DNA of 64,000 bases from Escherichia coli (GCF_003334405.1 NZ_QOWM01000002.1), one strand, 5' to 3'; shown: positions 11,469 through 44,938, counted from the first letter of the stretch. The notes: generated by a model from the letters alone, not told the origin. Numbers and translations: made by a program.

Positions 11469-11550
11469 CCCAGAGGTATTGATAGGTGAAGTCAACTTCG
11501 GGTTGAGCACATGAATTACACCAGCCTGCGCAGATGCGCAGGTTTTTTTT
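11469..11550 (+). ncRNA. omrB: OmrB small RNA (RygB), 82 nt
   Basis: CCCAGAGGTATTGATAGGTGA... ending in hairpin CCTGCGCAGATGCGCAGG + T8; matches OmrB and its position between galR and aas. Confidence 0.9.
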
Positions 11551-11664: not shown

Positions 11665-11752
11665 CCCAGAGGTATTGATTGGTGAGATTATTCGGTACGC
11701 TCTTCGTACCCTGTCTCTTGCACCAACCTGCGCGGATGCGCAGGTTTTTTTT
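11665..11752 (+). ncRNA. omrA: OmrA small RNA (RygA), 88 nt
   Basis: CCCAGAGGTATTGATTGGTGAGATTATTCGG... ending in hairpin CCTGCGCGGATGCGCAGG + T8; shares 5' and 3' ends with OmrB. Confidence 0.9.
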
Positions 11753-25425: not shown

Positions 25426-28400
25426 ATGTTAAGGGTCTACCATTCCAATCGTCTGGACGTGCTGGAAGCGTTGATGGAGTTTATTGTCGAACGCGAACGG
25501 CTGGACGATCCTTTCGAACCAGAGATGATTCTGGTGCAAAGTACCGGTATGGCACAGTGGCTGCAAATGACCCTGTCGCAAAAGTTTGGTATTGCGGCAA
25601 ACATTGATTTTCCGCTGCCAGCGAGCTTTATCTGGGATATGTTCGTCCGGGTGTTACCGGAAATCCCCAAAGAGAGCGCCTTTAACAAACAGAGCATGAG
25701 CTGGAAACTGATGACTCTGCTGCCGCAATTGCTGGAGCGCGAAGACTTTACCCTGTTGCGGCATTATCTGACTGACGATAGCGACAAGCGAAAACTGTTC
25801 CAGCTTTCCTCAAAAGCGGCGGACCTGTTTGACCAGTATCTGGTCTATCGTCCGGACTGGCTGGCACAGTGGGAAACAGGACATTTGGTTGAAGGGCTGG
25901 GAGAAGCACAGGCCTGGCAAGCCCCGTTGTGGAAGGCGCTGGTGGAATATACCCATCAACTCGGGCAACCGCGCTGGCACCGCGCCAATCTCTATCAGCG
26001 CTTTATCGAAACGCTGGAGTCCGCGACGACCTGCCCGCCGGGGTTACCTTCGCGCGTCTTTATATGCGGTATTTCCGCGTTACCGCCTGTTTATCTCCAG
26101 GCGCTACAGGCGCTGGGTAAACATATTGAAATCCATCTCCTGTTTACCAACCCCTGCCGTTATTACTGGGGCGATATTAAAGATCCTGCTTATCTGGCGA
26201 AACTGCTGACCCGTCAGCGTCGACACAGTTTTGAAGATCGCGAATTGCCGCTATTTCGTGATAGCGAAAATGCCGGGCAGCTCTTTAACAGCGATGGTGA
26301 ACAGGATGTCGGCAACCCGCTGCTGGCTTCATGGGGTAAGCTTGGGCGCGACTACATTTATCTCCTTTCTGACCTGGAGAGCAGCCAGGAGCTGGACGCC
26401 TTTGTCGATGTCACGCCAGATAACCTGCTGCATAACATTCAGTCTGACATTCTGGAACTGGAAAACCGCGCCGTTGCTGGTGTGAACATCGAAGAGTTTT
26501 CCCGTAGCGATAACAAACGCCCGCTTGATCCACTGGATAGCAGTATCACCTTCCACGTTTGCCATAGCCCGCAGCGTGAAGTTGAAGTTTTACACGATCG
26601 CCTGCTGGCGATGCTGGAGGAAGACCCGACACTTACTCCGCGCGACATCATCGTGATGGTGGCTGATATCGACAGCTACAGTCCGTTTATTCAGGCTGTG
26701 TTTGGTAGCGCACCTGCGGATCGTTACCTACCTTACGCCATTTCCGACCGTCGTGCGCGGCAGTCACATCCGGTACTGGAAGCGTTTATCAGCCTGTTAT
26801 CACTGCCTGACAGTCGTTTTGTGTCAGAGGATGTGCTGGCGTTGCTGGATGTGCCGGTGCTGGCGGCGCGGTTTGACATCACCGAAGAAGGGCTGCGTTA
26901 TTTACGCCAGTGGGTCAACGAATCCGGCATTCGTTGGGGCATAGATGACGACAACGTTCGCGAGCTGGAACTCCCCGCCACCGGACAACACACCTGGCGA
27001 TTTGGCCTGACGCGTATGTTGTTGGGCTACGCGATGGAGAGCGCGCAGGGCGAGTGGCAATCGGTTCTACCTTATGATGAATCGAGCGGCTTAATTGCAG
27101 AACTGGTGGGGCATCTGGCTTCACTGCTAATGCAGCTAAACATCTGGCGTCGCGGGCTGGCACAGGAGCGTCCGCTGGAAGAGTGGTTGCCGGTTTGTCG
27201 CGATATGCTCAACGCCTTCTTCCTGCCGGATGCGGAAACCGAAGCGGCGATGACGCTGATCGAACAACAATGGCAGGCGATTATCGCCGAAGGTTTAGGT
27301 GCGCAGTATGGCGACGCGGTGCCGCTGTCACTATTGCGTGATGAACTGGCACAGCGTCTGGATCAAGAACGTATCAGCCAGCGTTTTCTCGCCGGACCGG
27401 TTAACATTTGTACTCTGATGCCAATGCGTTCAATTCCGTTCAAAGTGGTTTGCCTGCTGGGAATGAACGACGGCGTTTATCCACGTCAGCTTGCGCCATT
27501 GGGCTTTGACCTGATGAGCCAGAAACCGAAGCGTGGCGACCGTAGCCGTCGCGATGACGACCGCTATCTGTTCCTGGAAGCGTTAATTTCCGCGCAGCAA
27601 AAACTCTATATCAGCTATATCGGTCGTTCCATTCAGGATAACAGTGAGCGTTTCCCGTCGGTACTGGTGCAGGAACTGATCGACTACATCGGGCAAAGTC
27701 ATTATCTACCGGGCGATGAAGCGCTCAACTGTGATGAAAGCGAGGCAAGGGTAAAAGCGCATCTTACTTGCCTCCATACCCGGATGCCGTTTGATCCACA
27801 AAACTACCAGCCAGGCGAACGACAAAGCTATGCTCGTGAATGGCTACCTGCGGCCAGCCAGGCTGGTAAAGCACATTCTGAATTTGTTCAGCCGCTGCCG
27901 TTTACCTTACCGGAAACCGTGCCGCTGGAAACGCTACAACGATTCTGGGCACATCCGGTGCGGGCATTTTTCCAGATGCGTTTGCAGGTGAACTTCCGTA
28001 CTGAAGACAGCGAAATCCCCGACACCGAGCCATTTATTCTGGAAGGACTTAGCCGTTATCAAATCAATCAGCAGTTATTGAATGCACTGGTTGAGCAGGA
28101 TGATGCCGAACGCTTGTTCCGCCGCTTCCGAGCGGCAGGGGATTTACCGTATGGCGCTTTTGGTGAAATTTTCTGGGAAACACAGTGCCAGGAGATGCAG
28201 CAGCTTGCCGACAGAGTCATTGCCTGTCGCCAGCCGGGGCAGAGTATGGAAATTGATCTCGCCTGCAACGGTGTGCAGATAACTGGCTGGTTGCCGCAGG
28301 TGCAGCCGGATGGCCTGTTGCGCTGGCGTCCCTCTTTATTAAGTGTGGCCCAGGGAATGCAACTTTGGCTGGAACACCTTGTCTACTGTGCCAGCGGTGG

Positions 28401-28794
28401 TAATGGTGAAAGTCGCCTTTTTCTACGCAAAGACGGCGAGTGGCGTTTTCCGCCGCTTGCAGCCGAACAGGCTTTGCATTACCTCTCACAACTGATTGAG
28501 GGGTATCGTGAAGGAATGTCCGCGCCATTGCTGGTGTTACCTGAAAGTGGCGGCGCGTGGCTAAAAACCTGTTATGACGCGCAAAACGATGCCATGCTGG
28601 ATGACGATTCCACGTTGCAAAAAGCCCGTACGAAATTCCTTCAGGCTTACGAAGGCAACATGATGGTGCGTGGCGAAGGTGATGATATCTGGTATCAAAG
28701 GCTCTGGCGGCAATTAACACCAGAGACAATGGAGGCCATCGTTGAACAGTCGCAACGTTTCCTGTTACCGCTGTTTCGCTTTAATCAGTCATGA
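25426..28794 (+). CDS. recC: Exodeoxyribonuclease V gamma subunit
   Basis: 1122 aa; full-length match to RecC. Confidence 0.96.
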   Translation: MLRVYHSNRLDVLEALMEFIVERERLDDPFEPEMILVQSTGMAQWLQMTLSQKFGIAANIDFPLPASFIWDMFVRVLPEIPKESAFNKQSMSWKLMTLLPQLLEREDFTLLRHYLTDDSDKRKLFQLSSKAADLFDQYLVYRPDWLAQWETGHLVEGLGEAQAWQAPLWKALVEYTHQLGQPRWHRANLYQRFIETLESATTCPPGLPSRVFICGISALPPVYLQALQALGKHIEIHLLFTNPCRYYWGDIKDPAYLAKLLTRQRRHSFEDRELPLFRDSENAGQLFNSDGEQDVGNPLLASWGKLGRDYIYLLSDLESSQELDAFVDVTPDNLLHNIQSDILELENRAVAGVNIEEFSRSDNKRPLDPLDSSITFHVCHSPQREVEVLHDRLLAMLEEDPTLTPRDIIVMVADIDSYSPFIQAVFGSAPADRYLPYAISDRRARQSHPVLEAFISLLSLPDSRFVSEDVLALLDVPVLAARFDITEEGLRYLRQWVNESGIRWGIDDDNVRELELPATGQHTWRFGLTRMLLGYAMESAQGEWQSVLPYDESSGLIAELVGHLASLLMQLNIWRRGLAQERPLEEWLPVCRDMLNAFFLPDAETEAAMTLIEQQWQAIIAEGLGAQYGDAVPLSLLRDELAQRLDQERISQRFLAGPVNICTLMPMRSIPFKVVCLLGMNDGVYPRQLAPLGFDLMSQKPKRGDRSRRDDDRYLFLEALISAQQKLYISYIGRSIQDNSERFPSVLVQELIDYIGQSHYLPGDEALNCDESEARVKAHLTCLHTRMPFDPQNYQPGERQSYAREWLPAASQAGKAHSEFVQPLPFTLPETVPLETLQRFWAHPVRAFFQMRLQVNFRTEDSEIPDTEPFILEGLSRYQINQQLLNALVEQDDAERLFRRFRAAGDLPYGAFGEIFWETQCQEMQQLADRVIACRQPGQSMEIDLACNGVQITGWLPQVQPDGLLRWRPSLLSVAQGMQLWLEHLVYCASGGNGESRLFLRKDGEWRFPPLAAEQALHYLSQLIEGYREGMSAPLLVLPESGGAWLKTCYDAQNDAMLDDDSTLQKARTKFLQAYEGNMMVRGEGDDIWYQRLWRQLTPETMEAIVEQSQRFLLPLFRFNQS

Positions 28795-28969
28795 GTGCTG
28801 TATAAAAATTGCGCAATCTATCCGCTTACTTTATGATGCGCACCAGTCACGGACTGATGGTTATATAAACATAGGCTGACTCGTGCAGCACAAGATTAAA
28901 TTCTGGCAGATGATTTGCGTTAACGTGTTGAATCTGGACAGAAAATTAAGTTGATTATGAGGTCCGTGA

Positions 28970-31858
28970 ATGCCCCGCAGCACCTGGTTCAAAGCATTAT
29001 TGTTGTTAGTTGCCCTTTGGGCACCCTTAAGTCAGGCAGAAACGGGATGGCAGCCGATTCAGGAAACCATCCGTAAAAGTGATAAAGATAACCGCCAGTA
29101 TCAGGCTATACGTCTGGATAACGGTATGGTGGTCTTGCTGGTTTCTGATCCGCAGGCAGTTAAATCGCTCTCGGCGCTGGTGGTGCCCGTTGGGTCGCTG
29201 GAAGATCCCGAGGCGTACCAGGGGCTGGCACATTACCTTGAACATATGAGTCTGATGGGGTCGAAAAAGTACCCGCAGGCTGACAGTCTGGCCGAATATC
29301 TCAAAATGCACGGCGGTAGTCACAATGCCAGCACTGCGCCGTATCGCACGGCTTTCTATCTGGAAGTTGAGAACGACGCCTTGCCTGGTGCGGTAGACCG
29401 CCTGGCCGATGCTATTGCTGAACCTTTGCTCGACAAGAAATATGCCGAACGTGAGCGTAATGCGGTGAACGCTGAATTAACCATGGCGCGTACGCGTGAC
29501 GGGATGCGCATGGCACAGGTCAGCGCAGAAACCATTAACCCGGCACACCCCGGTTCAAAGTTTTCTGGTGGTAACCTCGAAACTTTAAGCGACAAACCTG
29601 GTAATCCGGTGCAGCAGGCGCTGAAAGATTTCCACGAGAAGTACTATTCCGCCAATTTGATGAAGGCGGTTATTTACAGTAATAAACCGCTGCCGGAGTT
29701 GGCAAAAATGGCGGCGGACACCTTTGGTCGCGTGCCGAACAAAGAGAGCAAAAAACCGGAAATCACCGTGCCGGTAGTCACCGACGCGCAAAAGGGCATT
29801 ATCATTCATTACGTCCCTGCGCTGCCGCGTAAAGTGTTGCGCGTTGAGTTTCGCATCGATAACAACTCAGCGAAGTTCCGTAGTAAAACCGATGAATTGA
29901 TTACCTATCTGATTGGCAATCGCAGCCCAGGTACACTTTCTGACTGGCTGCAAAAGCAGGGATTAGTTGAGGGCATTAGCGCCAACTCCGATCCTATCGT
30001 CAACGGCAACAGCGGCGTATTAGCGATCTCTGCGTCTTTAACCGATAAAGGCCTGGCTAATCGCGATCAGGTTGTGGCGGCAATTTTTAGCTATCTCAAT
30101 CTGTTACGTGAAAAAGGCATTGATAAACAATACTTCGATGAACTGGCGAATGTGCTGGATATCGACTTCCGTTATCCGTCGATCACCCGTGATATGGATT
30201 ACGTCGAATGGCTGGCAGATACCATGATTCGCGTTCCTGTTGAGCATACGCTGGATGCAGTCAATATTGCCGATCGGTACGATGCTAAAGCAGTAAAGGA
30301 ACGTCTGGCGATGATGGCGCCGCAGAATGCGCGTATCTGGTATATCAGCCCGAAAGAGCCGCACAACAAAACGGCTTACTTTGTCGATGCGCCGTATCAG
30401 GTCGATAAAATCAGCGCACAAACTTTCGCCGACTGGCAGAAAAAAGCCGCCGACATTGCGCTCTCTTTGCCAGAGCTTAACCCTTATATTCCTGATGATT
30501 TCTCGCTGATTAAGTCAGAGAAGAAATACGACCATCCAGAGCTGATTGTTGATGAGTCGAATCTGCGCGTGGTGTATGCGCCAAGCCGTTATTTTGCCAG
30601 CGAGCCCAAAGCTGATGTCAGCCTGATTTTGCGTAATCCGAAAGCCATGGACAGCGCCCGCAATCAGGTGATGTTTGCGCTCAATGATTATCTCGCAGGG
30701 CTGGCGCTTGATCAGTTAAGCAACCAGGCGTCGGTTGGTGGCATAAGTTTTTCCACCAACGCTAACAACGGCCTTATGGTTAATGCTAATGGTTACACCC
30801 AGCGTCTGCCGCAGCTGTTCCAGGCATTGCTCGAGGGGTACTTTAGCTATACCGCTACGGAAGATCAGCTTGAGCAGGCGAAGTCCTGGTATAACCAGAT
30901 GATGGATTCCGCAGAAAAGGGTAAAGCGTTTGAGCAGGCGATTATGCCCGCGCAGATGCTCTCGCAAGTGCCGTACTTCTCGCGAGATGAACGGCGTAAA
31001 ATTTTGCCCTCCATTACGTTGAAAGAGGTGCTGGCCTATCGCGACGCCTTAAAATCAGGGGCTCGACCAGAGTTTATGGTTATCGGCAACATGACCGAGG
31101 CCCAGGCAACAACGCTGGCACGCGATGTGCAAAAACAGTTGGGCGCTGATGGTTCAGAGTGGTGTCGAAACAAAGATGTAGTGGTCGATAAAAAACAATC
31201 CGTCATCTTTGAAAAAGCCGGTAACAGCACCGACTCCGCACTGGCAGCGGTATTTGTACCGACTGGCTACGATGAATACACCAGCTCAGCCTATAGCTCT
31301 CTGTTGGGGCAGATCGTACAGCCGTGGTTCTACAATCAGTTGCGTACCGAAGAACAATTGGGCTATGCCGTGTTTGCGTTTCCAATGAGCGTGGGGCGTC
31401 AGTGGGGCATGGGCTTCCTTTTGCAAAGCAATGATAAACAGCCTTCATTCTTGTGGGAGCGTTACAAGGCGTTTTTCCCAACCGCAGAGGCAAAATTGCG
31501 AGCGATGAAGCCAGATGAGTTTGCGCAAATCCAGCAGGCGGTAATTACCCAGATGCTGCAGGCACCGCAAACGCTCGGCGAAGAAGCATCGAAGTTAAGT
31601 AAAGATTTCGATCGCGGCAATATGCGCTTCGATTCGCGTGATAAAATCGTGGCCCAGATAAAACTGCTGACGCCGCAAAAACTTGCTGATTTCTTCCATC
31701 AGGCGGTGGTCGAGCCGCAAGGCATGGCTATTCTGTCGCAGATTTCCGGCAGCCAGAACGGGAAAGCCGAATATGTACACCCTGAAGGCTGGAAAGTGTG
31801 GGAGAACGTCAGCGCGTTGCAGCAAACAATGCCCCTGATGAGTGAAAAGAATGAGTGA
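28970..31858 (+). CDS. ptrA: Protease III (pitrilysin), periplasmic M16 zinc metalloprotease
   Basis: 962 aa; signal peptide; inverted zinc motif HYLEHM. Confidence 0.96.
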   Translation: MPRSTWFKALLLLVALWAPLSQAETGWQPIQETIRKSDKDNRQYQAIRLDNGMVVLLVSDPQAVKSLSALVVPVGSLEDPEAYQGLAHYLEHMSLMGSKKYPQADSLAEYLKMHGGSHNASTAPYRTAFYLEVENDALPGAVDRLADAIAEPLLDKKYAERERNAVNAELTMARTRDGMRMAQVSAETINPAHPGSKFSGGNLETLSDKPGNPVQQALKDFHEKYYSANLMKAVIYSNKPLPELAKMAADTFGRVPNKESKKPEITVPVVTDAQKGIIIHYVPALPRKVLRVEFRIDNNSAKFRSKTDELITYLIGNRSPGTLSDWLQKQGLVEGISANSDPIVNGNSGVLAISASLTDKGLANRDQVVAAIFSYLNLLREKGIDKQYFDELANVLDIDFRYPSITRDMDYVEWLADTMIRVPVEHTLDAVNIADRYDAKAVKERLAMMAPQNARIWYISPKEPHNKTAYFVDAPYQVDKISAQTFADWQKKAADIALSLPELNPYIPDDFSLIKSEKKYDHPELIVDESNLRVVYAPSRYFASEPKADVSLILRNPKAMDSARNQVMFALNDYLAGLALDQLSNQASVGGISFSTNANNGLMVNANGYTQRLPQLFQALLEGYFSYTATEDQLEQAKSWYNQMMDSAEKGKAFEQAIMPAQMLSQVPYFSRDERRKILPSITLKEVLAYRDALKSGARPEFMVIGNMTEAQATTLARDVQKQLGADGSEWCRNKDVVVDKKQSVIFEKAGNSTDSALAAVFVPTGYDEYTSSAYSSLLGQIVQPWFYNQLRTEEQLGYAVFAFPMSVGRQWGMGFLLQSNDKQPSFLWERYKAFFPTAEAKLRAMKPDEFAQIQQAVITQMLQAPQTLGEEASKLSKDFDRGNMRFDSRDKIVAQIKLLTPQKLADFFHQAVVEPQGMAILSQISGSQNGKAEYVHPEGWKVWENVSALQQTMPLMSEKNE

Positions 31859-34800
31859 TGTCGCCGAGACACTAGATCCTTTGCGCTTGCCCTTACAGGG
31901 TGAGCGCCTGATTGAAGCCTCTGCCGGCACAGGCAAAACCTTTACGATTGCGGCGCTCTATTTGCGCCTGTTACTTGGACTAGGCGGTTCCGCCGCCTTT
32001 CCCCGCCCGCTGACCGTTGAAGAACTGCTGGTGGTCACCTTTACCGAGGCTGCCACGGCAGAATTGCGCGGTCGTATCCGTAGCAATATCCACGAGTTGC
32101 GCATCGCCTGTCTGCGTGAAACCACCGACAATCCACTGTACGAACGCCTGCTGGAAGAGATCGACGATAAAGCGCAAGCCGCGCAGTGGTTGTTGTTAGC
32201 CGAACGGCAGATGGATGAAGCGGCAGTCTTTACTATTCACGGCTTTTGCCAGCGCATGCTCAACCTGAATGCCTTTGAATCCGGCATGCTGTTTGAGCAG
32301 CAGCTGATTGAAGATGAGTCTCTGCTACGCTACCAGGCCTGCGCCGATTTCTGGCGTCGCCACTGCTACCCGCTGCCGCGTGAAATAGCCCAGGTCGTCT
32401 TTGAAACCTGGAAAGGGCCGCAGGCGTTGCTGCGCGATATTAATCGTTATCTGCAAGGCGAAGCGCCGGTTATCAAAGCACCGCCGCCCGATGATGAAAC
32501 GCTGGCTTCCCGTCACGCGCAAATTGTGGCGCGTATTGATACGGTAAAACAGCAGTGGCGCGACGCAGTGGGTGAACTGGATGCGCTGATCGAATCTTCT
32601 GGTATTGATCGACGCAAGTTTAACCGTAGCAATCAGGCTAAATGGATCGACAAGATCAGCGCCTGGGCAGAAGAAGAGACAAACAGTTATCAGTTGCCGG
32701 AGTCGCTGGAAAAATTCTCCCAGCGTTTCTTAGAAGATCGCACGAAGGCCGGGGGGGGAACCCCGCGACATCCACTGTTTGAGGCGATCGATCAACTGCT
32801 TGCAGAACCATTGTCGATCCGCGATCTGGTGATCACCCGCGCATTGGCTGAGATCCGCGAAACAGTAGCGCGTGAAAAACGCCGCCGTGGCGAATTGGGT
32901 TTTGATGACATGTTAAGTCGGCTCGATTCCGCGCTGCGTAGCGAAAGCGGTGAGGTGTTGGCAGCGGCGATCCGTACGCGATTCCCGGTGGCAATGATCG
33001 ATGAATTTCAGGATACCGACCCCCAGCAGTACCGAATTTTTCGCCGTATCTGGCACCATCAGCCGGAAACCGCATTGTTGCTAATTGGCGACCCGAAGCA
33101 GGCCATATATGCATTCCGGGGTGCGGATATCTTCACTTATATGAAGGCGCGTAGCGAAGTTCACGCCCACTACACTTTAGACACCAACTGGCGTTCCGCA
33201 CCAGGAATGGTGAACAGCGTGAATAAGCTTTTCAGCCAGACTGATGACGCGTTCATGTTTCGCGAAATACCGTTTATTCCAGTGAAATCAGCCGGGAAAA
33301 ATCAGGCGTTACGTTTTGTATTTAAAGGTGAAACACAGCCTGCGATGAAAATGTGGCTGATGGAAGGCGAAAGCTGCGGCGTTGGCGATTATCAAAGTAC
33401 CATGGCGCAGGTATGTGCTGCGCAAATCCGCGACTGGCTACAAGCCGGACAGCGGGGCGAAGCGTTGCTGATGAACGGCGACGACGCGCGTCCGGTGCGT
33501 GCTTCGGACATCAGTGTGCTGGTGCGCAGCCGCCAGGAGGCCGCCCAGGTGCGCGATGCCTTAACGTTGCTGGAAATCCCTTCCGTTTACCTTTCGAACC
33601 GCGACAGTGTTTTTGAAACTCTGGAAGCGCAGGAAATGCTTTGGTTGTTGCAGGCGGTGATGACGCCCGAACGTGAGAACACCCTGCGTAGTGCGCTGGC
33701 AACGTCAATGATGGGGCTGAACGCGCTGGATATCGAAACGCTGAACAATGACGAACATGCGTGGGATGTGGTAGTCGAAGAGTTCGATGGTTATCGGCAA
33801 ATCTGGCGCAAACGTGGCGTTATGCCGATGCTGCGGGCGCTGATGTCGGCGCGTAACATTGCTGAAAACTTGCTGGCAACGGCAGGCGGTGAGCGGCGTC
33901 TTACCGATATCTTGCATATCAGCGAACTGCTACAAGAAGCCGGAACGCAGCTGGAAAGTGAACATGCGCTGGTACGCTGGTTATCGCAACATATCCTCGA
34001 GCCAGACAGTAATGCCTCCAGCCAACAAATGCGTCTCGAAAGTGATAAACATCTGGTGCAGATTGTCACGATCCACAAATCGAAAGGGCTGGAATATCCA
34101 TTGGTCTGGCTGCCGTTTATCACCAATTTCCGCGTCCAGGAGCAGGCGTTTTATCACGATCGCCACTCGTTTGAGGCAGTTCTGGATCTTAATGCTGCGC
34201 CAGAAAGCGTCGACCTCGCGGAGGCCGAACGTCTGGCGGAAGATCTGCGTTTGCTTTACGTGGCGCTGACACGTTCGGTTTGGCATTGCAGTCTCGGCGT
34301 TGCACCGCTGGTGCGCCGTCGTGGCGATAAAAAAGGTGACACCGACGTCCACCAAAGTGCGCTCGGGCGTTTGCTGCAAAAAGGGGAACCGCAAGATGCG
34401 GCAGGGCTTCGCACCTGTATTGAAGCGTTATGCGATGATGATATTGCCTGGCAAACGGCACAAACTGGTGATAACCAACCCTGGCAGGTTAATGATGTTT
34501 CTACAGCAGAGCTGAATGCGAAGACGTTACAACGATTGCCCGGCGATAACTGGCGCGTCACCAGCTACTCTGGTTTGCAACAGCGTGGTCACGGTATCGC
34601 CCAGGATTTGATGCCTCGGCTGGATGTCGATGCTGCAGGCGTTGCCAGCGTCGTTGAAGAACCGACGTTAACACCACATCAGTTTCCGCGCGGTGCGTCA
34701 CCGGGGACGTTCTTGCACAGTTTGTTTGAAGACCTGGATTTTACCCAGCCGGTTGACCCGAACTGGGTGCGGGAAAAACTGGAACTCGGCGGCTTTGAAT

Positions 34801-35393
34801 CGCAGTGGGAACCGGTATTGACCGAGTGGATCACGGCTGTCCTCCAGGCACCTCTCAATGAAACCGGCGTAAGCCTGAGTCAACTTTCCGCCCGCAATAA
34901 ACAGGTGGAGATGGAGTTTTATCTGCCGATTAGTGAACCGCTTATCGCCAGTCAGCTTGATACGTTAATCCGCCAGTTTGACCCGCTATCCGCAGGCTGC
35001 CCGCCGCTGGAGTTCATGCAGGTACGTGGCATGTTAAAAGGCTTTATCGACCTGGTGTTCCGCCACGAAGGGCGTTATTACCTGCTCGACTATAAATCCA
35101 ACTGGTTGGGTGAAGACAGTTCGGCTTACACCCAACAGGCTATGGCAGCGGCAATGCAGGCACACCGCTATGATCTGCAATATCAGCTTTATACCCTGGC
35201 GCTGCATCGTTATCTGCGCCATCGCATTGCTGATTACGACTATGAGCACCACTTTGGCGGCGTTATTTATCTGTTCCTGCGTGGCGTTGATAAAGAACAT
35301 CCGCAACAGGGGATTTACACAACCCGACCCAACGCCGGGTTGATTGCCCTGATGGATGAGATGTTTGCCGGTATGACCCTGGAGGAGGCGTAA
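31851..35393 (+). CDS. recB: Exodeoxyribonuclease V beta subunit (helicase-nuclease)
   Basis: 1180 aa from ATG 31851 ([11 protein letters not shown]...); Walker A ASAGTGKT; 8-nt overlap with ptrA. Confidence 0.96.
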
Positions 35394-37219
35394 TGAAATT
35401 GCAAAAGCAATTACTGGAAGCTGTGGAGCACAAACAGCTACGCCCGCTGGATGTGCAATTTGCCCTGACCGTGGCGGGAGATGAACATCCTGCCGTCACC
35501 CTCGCGGCGGCACTGTTAAGTCATGATGCCGGAGAGGGACACGTTTGTTTGCCGCTTTCACGACTGGAAAATAACGAGGCGTCGCATCCGCTGTTGGCGA
35601 CCTGTGTCAGTGAAATCGGTGAGCTACAAAATTGGGAAGAATGCTTGCTGGCTTCTCAAGCGGTCAGCAGGGGAGATGAACCCACGCCGATGATCCTCTG
35701 TGGCGATCGTCTTTATTTGAATCGCATGTGGTGTAACGAGCGCACAGTGGCACGCTTTTTCAACGAAGTGAATCATGCCATTGAGGTTGATGAAGCTCTA
35801 CTGGCGCAAACCCTGGACAAACTTTTTCCAGTAAGCGATGAAATTAACTGGCAAAAAGTTGCGGCGGCAGTGGCGCTGACGCGGCGGATCTCGGTGATTT
35901 CCGGCGGCCCTGGCACCGGTAAAACGACCACCGTAGCGAAGTTGCTGGCAGCGTTAATTCAAATGGCCGACGGCGAACGCTGCCGTATCCGTCTGGCTGC
36001 ACCAACGGGTAAAGCTGCCGCGCGCTTAACCGAATCTCTCGGCAAGGCTTTGCGACAGTTACCGCTGACCGATGAACAAAAGAAACGCATTCCGGAAGAT
36101 GCCAGCACTTTGCACCGATTGCTGGGCGCGCAGCCGGGTAGCCAGCGTTTACGTCATCATGCCGGTAACCCGCTGCATCTTGATGTGCTGGTGGTAGATG
36201 AAGCGTCAATGATCGATCTGCCTATGATGTCGAGACTGATCGACGCTTTGCCCGATCATGCGCGAGTGATCTTTCTCGGCGATCGTGATCAACTGGCCTC
36301 GGTTGAGGCTGGGGCTGTGCTGGGCGATATCTGCGCTTATGCCAACGCGGGCTTTACCGCCGAGCGTGCCAGGCAGCTAAGCCGCCTGACGGGGACTCAC
36401 GTTCCGGCAGGAACCGGCACAGAAGCGGCATCTTTGCGCGACAGTCTCTGCCTGCTGCAAAAAAGCTATCGTTTCGGCAGCGATTCTGGCATTGGTCAGT
36501 TAGCTGCGGCGATCAACCGTGGTGATAAAACGGCAGTGAAAACCGTTTTTCAGCAGGATTTTACTGATATCGAAAAACGGCTTTTACAGAGCGGCGAAGA
36601 TTATATTGCGATGCTTGAGGAAGCTCTTGCGGGTTACGGACGTTATCTGGATCTGCTGCAAGCGCGTGCCGAGCCGGATTTAATCATTCAGGCGTTCAAT
36701 GAGTACCAGCTTTTGTGCGCCCTGCGGGAAGGGCCGTTTGGCGTGGCTGGACTGAATGAGCGAATTGAGCAGTTTATGCAACAGAAGCGCAAAATTCATC
36801 GTCATCCGCACTCTCGTTGGTACGAAGGTCGACCGGTGATGATTGCCCGTAATGACAGCGCGCTTGGGTTGTTTAATGGCGATATCGGTATTGCGCTGGA
36901 TCGCGGGCAGGGGACGCGCGTCTGGTTTGCGATGCCGGACGGCAATATTAAGTCTGTGCAACCGAGTCGCTTGCCAGAGCACGAAACTACGTGGGCGATG
37001 ACGGTACATAAATCGCAGGGATCGGAGTTCGACCATGCGGCGTTGATTTTGCCGAGCCAACGCACGCCGGTAGTAACGCGAGAGCTGGTTTATACCGCGG
37101 TGACCCGCGCGCGTCGCCGTCTGTCGCTGTATGCCGATGAGCGCATATTAAGTGCGGCAATCGCCACTCGTACTGAGCGGCGCAGTGGTCTGGCGGCGTT
37201 GTTTAGTTCACGGGAATAA
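35393..37219 (+). CDS. recD: Exodeoxyribonuclease V alpha subunit (helicase)
   Basis: 608 aa; Walker A GGPGTGKT; TAATG overlap with the recB stop. Confidence 0.96.
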
Positions 37220-40247: not shown

Positions 40248-40455
40248 TCCGTGGATGCGCACTATACTCCGCTCGCGTTTTCATGCAACCTTTTTTTTAC
40301 CCCGATCACGGATTTGGCATGATTTTGAACAAAAACAAATCACTAAAGCCTATTTTTTGTGCAAAATTTGCGTCAGGGAGAGGCTGCTCATTTCATTAAA
40401 CGCGGCGGTTTGTTATCTTCGTTGCGCCTTATTTTTTAACCTGAAGAAGAGAACA

Positions 40456-44732: not shown

Positions 44733-44938
44733 AAAAAAAAGCACCGCAATTAGGCGGTGCTACATTAATCACTATGGACAGACAGGGTAAATGTACAGGA
44801 AGTGAAAAAAGGTAGCTTTGCTACCATGGTCTGAATCGCAGACCAATTGCAAACACAACAACACAACATCACAACCGTAAGCCAAAAGTTCACCAGAACA
44901 CGCATTCCGATAAAACTTTTCGTTCCGGCTCAGGAAGT
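44733..44938 (-). ncRNA. gcvB: GcvB small RNA (~206 nt)
   Basis: Minus-strand sequence ACTTCCTGAGCCGGAACGAAAAGTTTTATCGGAATGCGTGTTCTGGTGAAC... with GT-rich region and terminal hairpin GCACCGCCTAATTGCGGTGC + U8; divergent from gcvA. Confidence 0.9.

Follow-up and report, generated by a model that had tools for sequence, protein, structure and literature searches.

An eight-G run in recB of Escherichia coli, very probably a one-base extension of a seven-G tract and a site of assembly frameshifts

The DNA analysed here is a 64,000-nucleotide stretch of an Escherichia coli genome (GCF_003334405.1, NZ_QOWM01000002.1), referred to below as the window, in which the open reading frames of ptrA, recB and recD follow one another in an order that matches the RefSeq annotation (Table 1). 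Within recB lies an uninterrupted run of eight G, GGGGGGGG, with a C at 32750 before it and an A at 32759 after it. A first-pass annotation made from the sequence had placed eight G at this position, and direct reading of the sequence bore this out. It had also given the codons involved as spanning 32749-32760; the in-frame translation AGGGT was correct but the start was not, the codons beginning one base earlier, at 32748. The listing of open reading frames opens recB at a GTG at 31842, and the annotated ATG lies 9 nt later, at 31851. The GCC codon at 32748 is in frame with ORF 31842..35393, the distance 32748-31842 being a multiple of 3, and, with the annotated start at the ATG, the residues AGGGT are RecB 300-304.

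The identification of the gene as recB with an intact frame, made in the first-pass annotation, holds. The frame is uninterrupted over 1180 codons in the window, and the open reading frame matches two NCBIfam equivalogs well above their cut-offs, NF008128 (2336 bits, cut-off 1697) and TIGR00609 (1545 bits, cut-off 696), both covering residues 4-1182. The homologous region is annotated as recB in 5,426 of 5,426 complete E. coli genomes in RefSeq. One of these matches lies on a record typed 'plasmid', probably because the replicon was mislabelled or the record is a piece of chromosome.

At the two borders of recB the genes overlap. The stop of ptrA and the start of recB share 8 nt (AATGAGTGA, window 31851-31858), and the recB stop TAA and the recD ATG share one A (TAATG, window 35391-35395). 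These overlaps are a translational-coupling layout, as in the K-12 annotation. A -1 slip at the run brings in a stop 27 codons downstream and a +1 slip a stop 11 codons downstream, so that a slip in either direction cuts RecB short near residue 310-327 of 1180, in agreement with the truncation predicted in the first-pass annotation. Because the recD ATG and the recB stop share one base, a frameshift at the run would uncouple the translation of recD as well.

Table 1. Genes, the eight-G run and other features of the window, in window coordinates
Feature	Position	Strand	Basis
ptrA	28970..31858		ORF list, RefSeq annotation
recB CDS, exodeoxyribonuclease V beta subunit, 1180 aa, intact	31851..35393	+	NCBIfam equivalogs, RefSeq annotation
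Codons GCC GGG GGG GGA ACC, Ala300 Gly301 Gly302 Gly303 Thr304 of RecB	32748..32762	+	Translation; numbering from PDB alignment
G8 homopolymer run, recB nt 901-908	32751..32758	+	Read directly
Variant base A908G, GAA (Glu303) to GGA (Gly303), G7 to G8	32758..32758	+	Alignments to MG1655 and other strains
recD	35393..37219	+	ORF list, sequence, K-12 annotation
T8 run	11543-11550	+	Run tally
T8 run	11745-11752	+	Run tally
T8 run	40291-40298	+	Run tally
A8 run	44733-44740	+	Run tally

A structured RNA at the run was considered and rejected. The candidate, a mini-hairpin in which GGGG pairs with a downstream CCCC in a 4-bp stem closed by a GNRA loop, was no better than shuffled sequences on either strand or with either allele (z of -0.6 for the window, -1.0 for K-12 and -0.2 for the minus strand), and no Rfam families were found in window 30000-36000.

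By base composition the run is unremarkable, because about 1.2 G runs of at least 8 nt are expected per 64 kb if bases are independent. The window holds fewer G and C runs than that model predicts, with one G6 observed vs 12.5 expected, no G7 vs 3.3 expected and no C run of 6 or longer vs 10 expected, and the G8 in recB is its only G/C run longer than 6. Markov models of order 2 and order 3 predict 0.15-0.22 G/C runs of at least 8 nt per 64 kb. It is on these higher-order models, together with the observed depletion of G/C runs, that the description of the run as long for coding DNA rests, a description already given in the first-pass annotation and upheld here. Against this single G/C run, the tally of A/T runs of 8 nt in the window comes to five (four are listed in Table 1), and the K-12 genome contains 216 runs of 8 nt with all four bases counted (Foster laboratory, 10.1101/346874). 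The G8 run is long for local coding DNA, yet statistically it is not extraordinary at genome scale.

In MG1655 and five other strains the aligned codons read GCC GGG GGG GAA ACC (AGGET), a run of seven G, and all solved RecB structures represented among the PDB chains have E at residue 303. Over 3,543 nt the recB of the window differs from that of MG1655 at one position, nt 908 (A908G, Glu303Gly). The 24 kb around the run are almost identical to K-12 derivatives, and the best 24-kb matches, BR1220 and WP5-S17-ESBL-10, are both carriers of G8. The first-pass annotation had asked for a comparison with reference recB sequences, and the run proved to be variable among them, K-12 having G7 followed by AAA. 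Its cautious reading is supported, with the correction that the reference run is G7 and the addition that a recurrent missense SNP produced the eighth G.

The alleles at the run were counted in 5,426 complete E. coli genomes, 5,397 of which were matched by 44-mers; these begin at the GCC codon and are therefore clear of a synonymous AAG/AAA polymorphism 4 nt upstream. G7AAA was found in 5,151 genomes (~95%), G8AA in 101 (~2%), G6AAA in ~84, G7AA in 5 and G8AAA in 1, and G9AA in none of the 5,426, all of these counts being approximate since bands of at least 99% identity may take in end-trimmed alignments, and all being cross-checked between queries. For G6, 30 of the ~84 genomes matched exactly over the full length, and the queries agree with one another on cross-checking. 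Left unclassified were ~54 matched and 29 unmatched genomes. The polymorphism upstream, at recB nt 897 (window 32747), is a common synonymous difference between the Lys codons AAG and AAA that divides the recB haplotypes of E. coli, and because it does so an origin of G8 on separate backgrounds can be demonstrated. G8 is present in ~5% of genomes with the AAG flank vs ~0.1% of others, and the whole 90-mer of the window is common to 97 of the 101 G8AA genomes, which come from many projects.

Four G8 genomes, MS1494, MS1737, NCCP15734 and N137, have the AAA-Lys flank. The recB of MS1494 and MS1737 is 128 substitutions away from the window allele and differs from that of LF82 at nt 908 alone, and the recB of NCCP15734 and N137 is 84 substitutions away from the window allele and differs from that of M15 at nt 908 and at one private site each. 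Each G8 haplotype is thus separated by 0-1 other changes from a G7 sibling (MG1655, LF82 or M15). In public contigs (NCBI, ENA, Logan) the 1180-aa E303G protein of the window type has an exact match on at least 1000 contigs and that of the LF82 type on 131, and in view of these numbers both are certainly real alleles. The M15-like G8 alleles are present on 1-2 public contigs each; there G7A3 may have been mis-called as G8A2 at the boundary of the two runs, in which case the firm origins number two and not three. Judged from these haplotypes, A908G has had separate origins on two recB backgrounds at least, and probably on three, K-12-like, LF82-like and M15-like. The other way for G8 to reach several haplotypes is short-patch recombination, which is judged unlikely, though less firmly so on the LF82-like background. 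For the M15-like G8 alleles, differences from the window at 4 nt upstream and 34 nt downstream bound an imported tract to less than 45 nt; on the LF82-like background flanking differences bound it to less than 204 nt. At the same locus in MS1494 (NZ_CP097724.1, locus 1-1838) an IS1203 element (IS3-family) lies within ptrA, and a 5'-truncated 'insulinase family' pseudogene is found directly upstream of the intact recB.

Among 80 loci, one genome per species, G7 occurs in E. coli-like genomes only. At the site of the run E. albertii has GCG GGG GGC GAG, and in Citrobacter and Salmonella the codons are GGY GGY GTA, in which no more than 2-3 G stand together; in these and in at least 70 other genera the run is interrupted by GGC or GGT codons. 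More distant genera are without one of the glycines, and Serratia and Yersinia are among those with a 1-aa gap. Across the 80 species sampled, residue 303 takes the values E, V, I, A, Q, T, N and D, and in none of them is it Gly. Because sister genera break the run and the loop varies, the G7 run is explained by the codons that one lineage happens to use in this loop and is not a conserved DNA or RNA element. The variation of residue 303 among enterobacteria suggests in the same way that E303G is probably tolerated.

Residue 303 is in a variable loop at the foot of the RecB arm, a surface to which duplex DNA binds, four residues past K299 and six past R297. Of these, R297 contacts a DNA phosphate and E114 of Gam, and K299 contacts a DNA phosphate; E303 is absent from the listed contact residues (PMC9836394 Table 1). 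The arm segment 241-289 is bordered by loops that were disordered in earlier structures, and the arm is the binding site of Gam and gp5.9 and possibly of a retron (PMC9836394).

The position and identity of the changed base are those of a known class of mutation. In mutation-accumulation lines of E. coli, base substitutions are raised up to ~18-fold at runs; 63% of run-associated substitutions fall on the nucleotide adjoining the run, 46% of those are run-templated, and the authors ascribe the run-adjacent substitutions to transient misalignment of the primer (bioRxiv 10.1101/346874). A908G adjoins a run of seven, longer than the 4 nt that this class of mutation calls for, and its new base is the base of the run (G7-A to G7-G), and the change recurs on three haplotype backgrounds, the third represented on 1-2 contigs. 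In the preferred sequence of events, G7 is a by-product of writing Gly-Gly as GGG-GGG where the protein has a variable surface loop and the gene is weakly expressed. In the lineage of the window the A directly 3' of G7 then became G, extending the run by one base. Transient misalignment, applied to nt 908 by analogy, would have the primer slip back in the run, copy an extra run base and realign, yielding A908G. The extension to G8 would in turn probably raise the run's own risk of indels. Substitutions next to runs, known as 'dislocation' base substitutions, were reportedly described by Kunkel and Soni in 1988.

The recB run resembles the mononucleotide-run hotspots of E. coli, the products of Streisinger slippage and transient misalignment, in that a substitution adjoins a run of 7, the new base is the same as the run base and recurs on independent backgrounds, and alleles changed by one base in either direction occur at the run, more of them on the longer tract. 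It differs in that the evidence at recB comes from natural and archived genomes whereas rates were measured in the hotspot studies, and in that most of the recB indels look technical.

The first-pass annotation had called the run a potential site of slippage or sequencing error, and it is demonstrably such a site. About 90 'complete' E. coli genomes in RefSeq are frameshifted exactly at the run (~84 G6, 5 G7AA, 1 G8AAA and 1 double deletion), with 90 deletions vs 1 insertion. In F9792, ETEC4073, 2014C-3057, E686, RM19259 and NCTC9038, that is, in every one inspected, recB is annotated as a pseudogene with the label 'frameshifted'. Of the 30 listed G6 genomes, at least 23 have accessions in the series CP027xxx, CP127xxx and CP122xxx, compared with 0 of 57 control genomes taken from across the G7 set (Fisher p = 2e-6). 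A single ETEC project, on which a literature search returned nothing relevant, contains -1 alleles on the G7 as well as on the G8 background; the recB of ETEC4073 is otherwise identical to the window allele. E686 (NZ_CP049198.1, locus ~61-102) has two 1-nt deletions 3 nt apart, from G7 to G6 and from CCCC to CCC, a double deletion that is typical of long-read consensus error.

The -1 fraction is 5/106 (~4.7%) on G8 vs 84/5,236 (~1.6%) on G7 (odds ratio 3.0, Fisher p = 0.03), a difference that is expected of a longer run whether the alleles are real or technical. In ETEC4073 and 2014C-3057 recB is the sole pseudogene in 40 kb; since no other long G/C run is nearby, pseudogene density as a proxy for assembly quality speaks neither for nor against a real mutation. 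The neighbourhood of recB in 2014C-3057 also contains, at locus 27609-32837, a five-gene insertion between amiC and a tRNA-Met triplet that is missing in ETEC4073 and encodes a PRD-domain regulator, a PTS EIIC, MalY/PatB, a KpsF/GutQ isomerase and a phosphoglycerate dehydrogenase.

Long-read consensus errors are chiefly homopolymer deletions (PMC12007338). The recB alleles are like the homopolymer errors of PacBio and Nanopore reads described there in their strong deletion bias and their clustering in sequencing projects, in striking the longest G/C run of the neighbourhood, in the 'frameshifted' label given by PGAP and in the one genome with two adjacent deletions; they differ in that they are judged from assembled sequences. 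Because nearly all of them are deletions and they cluster by project and not by lineage, the frameshifts at the run are likely to be errors of long-read assembly. E. coli without functional recB has poor viability and is sensitive to DNA damage, and a prevalence of 1.6% recB-null among isolates is therefore unlikely. Most likely, then, the frameshift alleles mainly reflect long-read homopolymer under-calling and not real recB-null isolates. Taken as a whole, we hold with considerable confidence that the run has no function of its own, that it is a one-base extension of G7 through a recurrent run-adjacent A908G, and that the frameshifts found at it are mainly under-calls in long-read assemblies.

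Two other accounts give the length of the run a different meaning, one biological and one technical. The run could be a contingency tract, in which reversible slips of one base in either direction switch RecBCD off and on, and the frameshifted genomes would be the OFF variants. The ~90 of ~5,400 complete genomes with a frameshift exactly at the run and a recB annotated as pseudogene would fit this, as would the higher -1 rate on the longer G8 tract and the two frameshift genomes that have no other pseudogene in 40 kb. A contingency locus is, however, expected to show length polymorphism in both directions, independent of the sequencing method, and a tract that is kept in related species and lineages; at recB there are 90 deletions for 1 insertion, the alleles group by sequencing project and not by lineage, and beyond Escherichia the tract is broken by GGC and GGT codons. 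The double homopolymer deletion of E686 and the sickness of recB-null E. coli also speak against a switch. The recB tract shares with the poly-G/C contingency loci of Neisseria, Haemophilus, Campylobacter and Helicobacter a coding poly-G tract in which a change of length shifts the frame off, but at 7-8 it is short, the sister genera do not keep it, the gene around it serves housekeeping repair, and its changes are nearly all deletions that track sequencing projects. A tract of G7-G8 is at or below the lengths found at classical contingency loci, and to our knowledge phase variation by poly-G is not known in E. coli. No evidence of ON/OFF switching at the run was seen among the assembled genomes, a literature search for a homopolymer hotspot or switch in recB returned nothing, and we regard phase variation here as extremely improbable. 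We give next to no probability to the technical account, by which the eighth G of the window came about in sequencing or assembly, as a G7A3 mis-called as G8A2 in a K-12-like genome. The recB of the window does differ from MG1655 at nt 908 only, its 24-kb surroundings are nearly identical to K-12 derivatives, and adjacent homopolymers are error-prone in long reads (PMC12007338). The identical 90-mer, however, is present in 97 complete genomes from many projects, G8 is much more frequent on one haplotype than on the others, at least 1000 public contigs encode exactly this 1180-aa protein, and the best 24-kb matches carry G8 themselves.

Run-adjacent mutation would account for the repeated appearance of G8; selection on the protein could do so too. 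On that account E303G would be positively selected, the loss of a negative charge altering the binding of DNA ends or the sensitivity to phage inhibitors or retron guards, which we consider improbable; that selection, rather than mutation bias, lies behind the repeated origin of E303G and its spread to ~2% is given an equally small chance. The same non-synonymous change has three apparently independent origins, two of the alleles have spread widely (at least 1000 contigs for one, 131 for the other), the neighbouring R297 and K299 touch DNA phosphates and R297 touches E114 of Gam (PMC9836394 Table 1), and the arm binds Gam and gp5.9 and possibly a retron. The arm is a known target of phage DNA mimics, Gam and T7 gp5.9 (PMC9836394), and residue 303 is like the targeted positions in being close to the contacts R297 and K299, but differs from them in that no contact is reported for E303 itself. 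Against selection, the position varies freely among enterobacteria with Gly in 0 of 80 species, the changed base is exactly the one that a run-adjacent hotspot predicts (10.1101/346874), E303 is not a listed contact (PMC9836394), and E is kept in 95% of E. coli. The fuller version, in which the recurrent Glu303Gly is adaptive by tuning DNA-end binding, by escape from inhibitors such as Gam and gp5.9 or by retron guarding, with G7 as a frequent source of the mutation, is quite improbable; if it were true, the G7 run would be a mutational shortcut to the variant.

With recurrent run-adjacent substitution and long-read under-calling as the preferred explanation, the locus is an ordinary mutational and technical hotspot that is already represented in public data. 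It has little biological weight, since slippery runs of this kind are textbook matter, the gene is well known and the allele already occurs in thousands of public assemblies; its value is as a clean natural example of a run-adjacent substitution that extends the run, with the same change from A to G on what are probably three recB backgrounds. For users of the genomes the consequence is practical, as ~1.6% of the 'complete' E. coli genomes in RefSeq call recB a pseudogene because of a frameshift at the run, a call that is most likely mistaken. Where loss of RecBCD is deduced from annotation, for instance in work on phage defence, CRISPR adaptation or recombination, frameshifts at the run should be treated as artefacts until they are confirmed in the reads.
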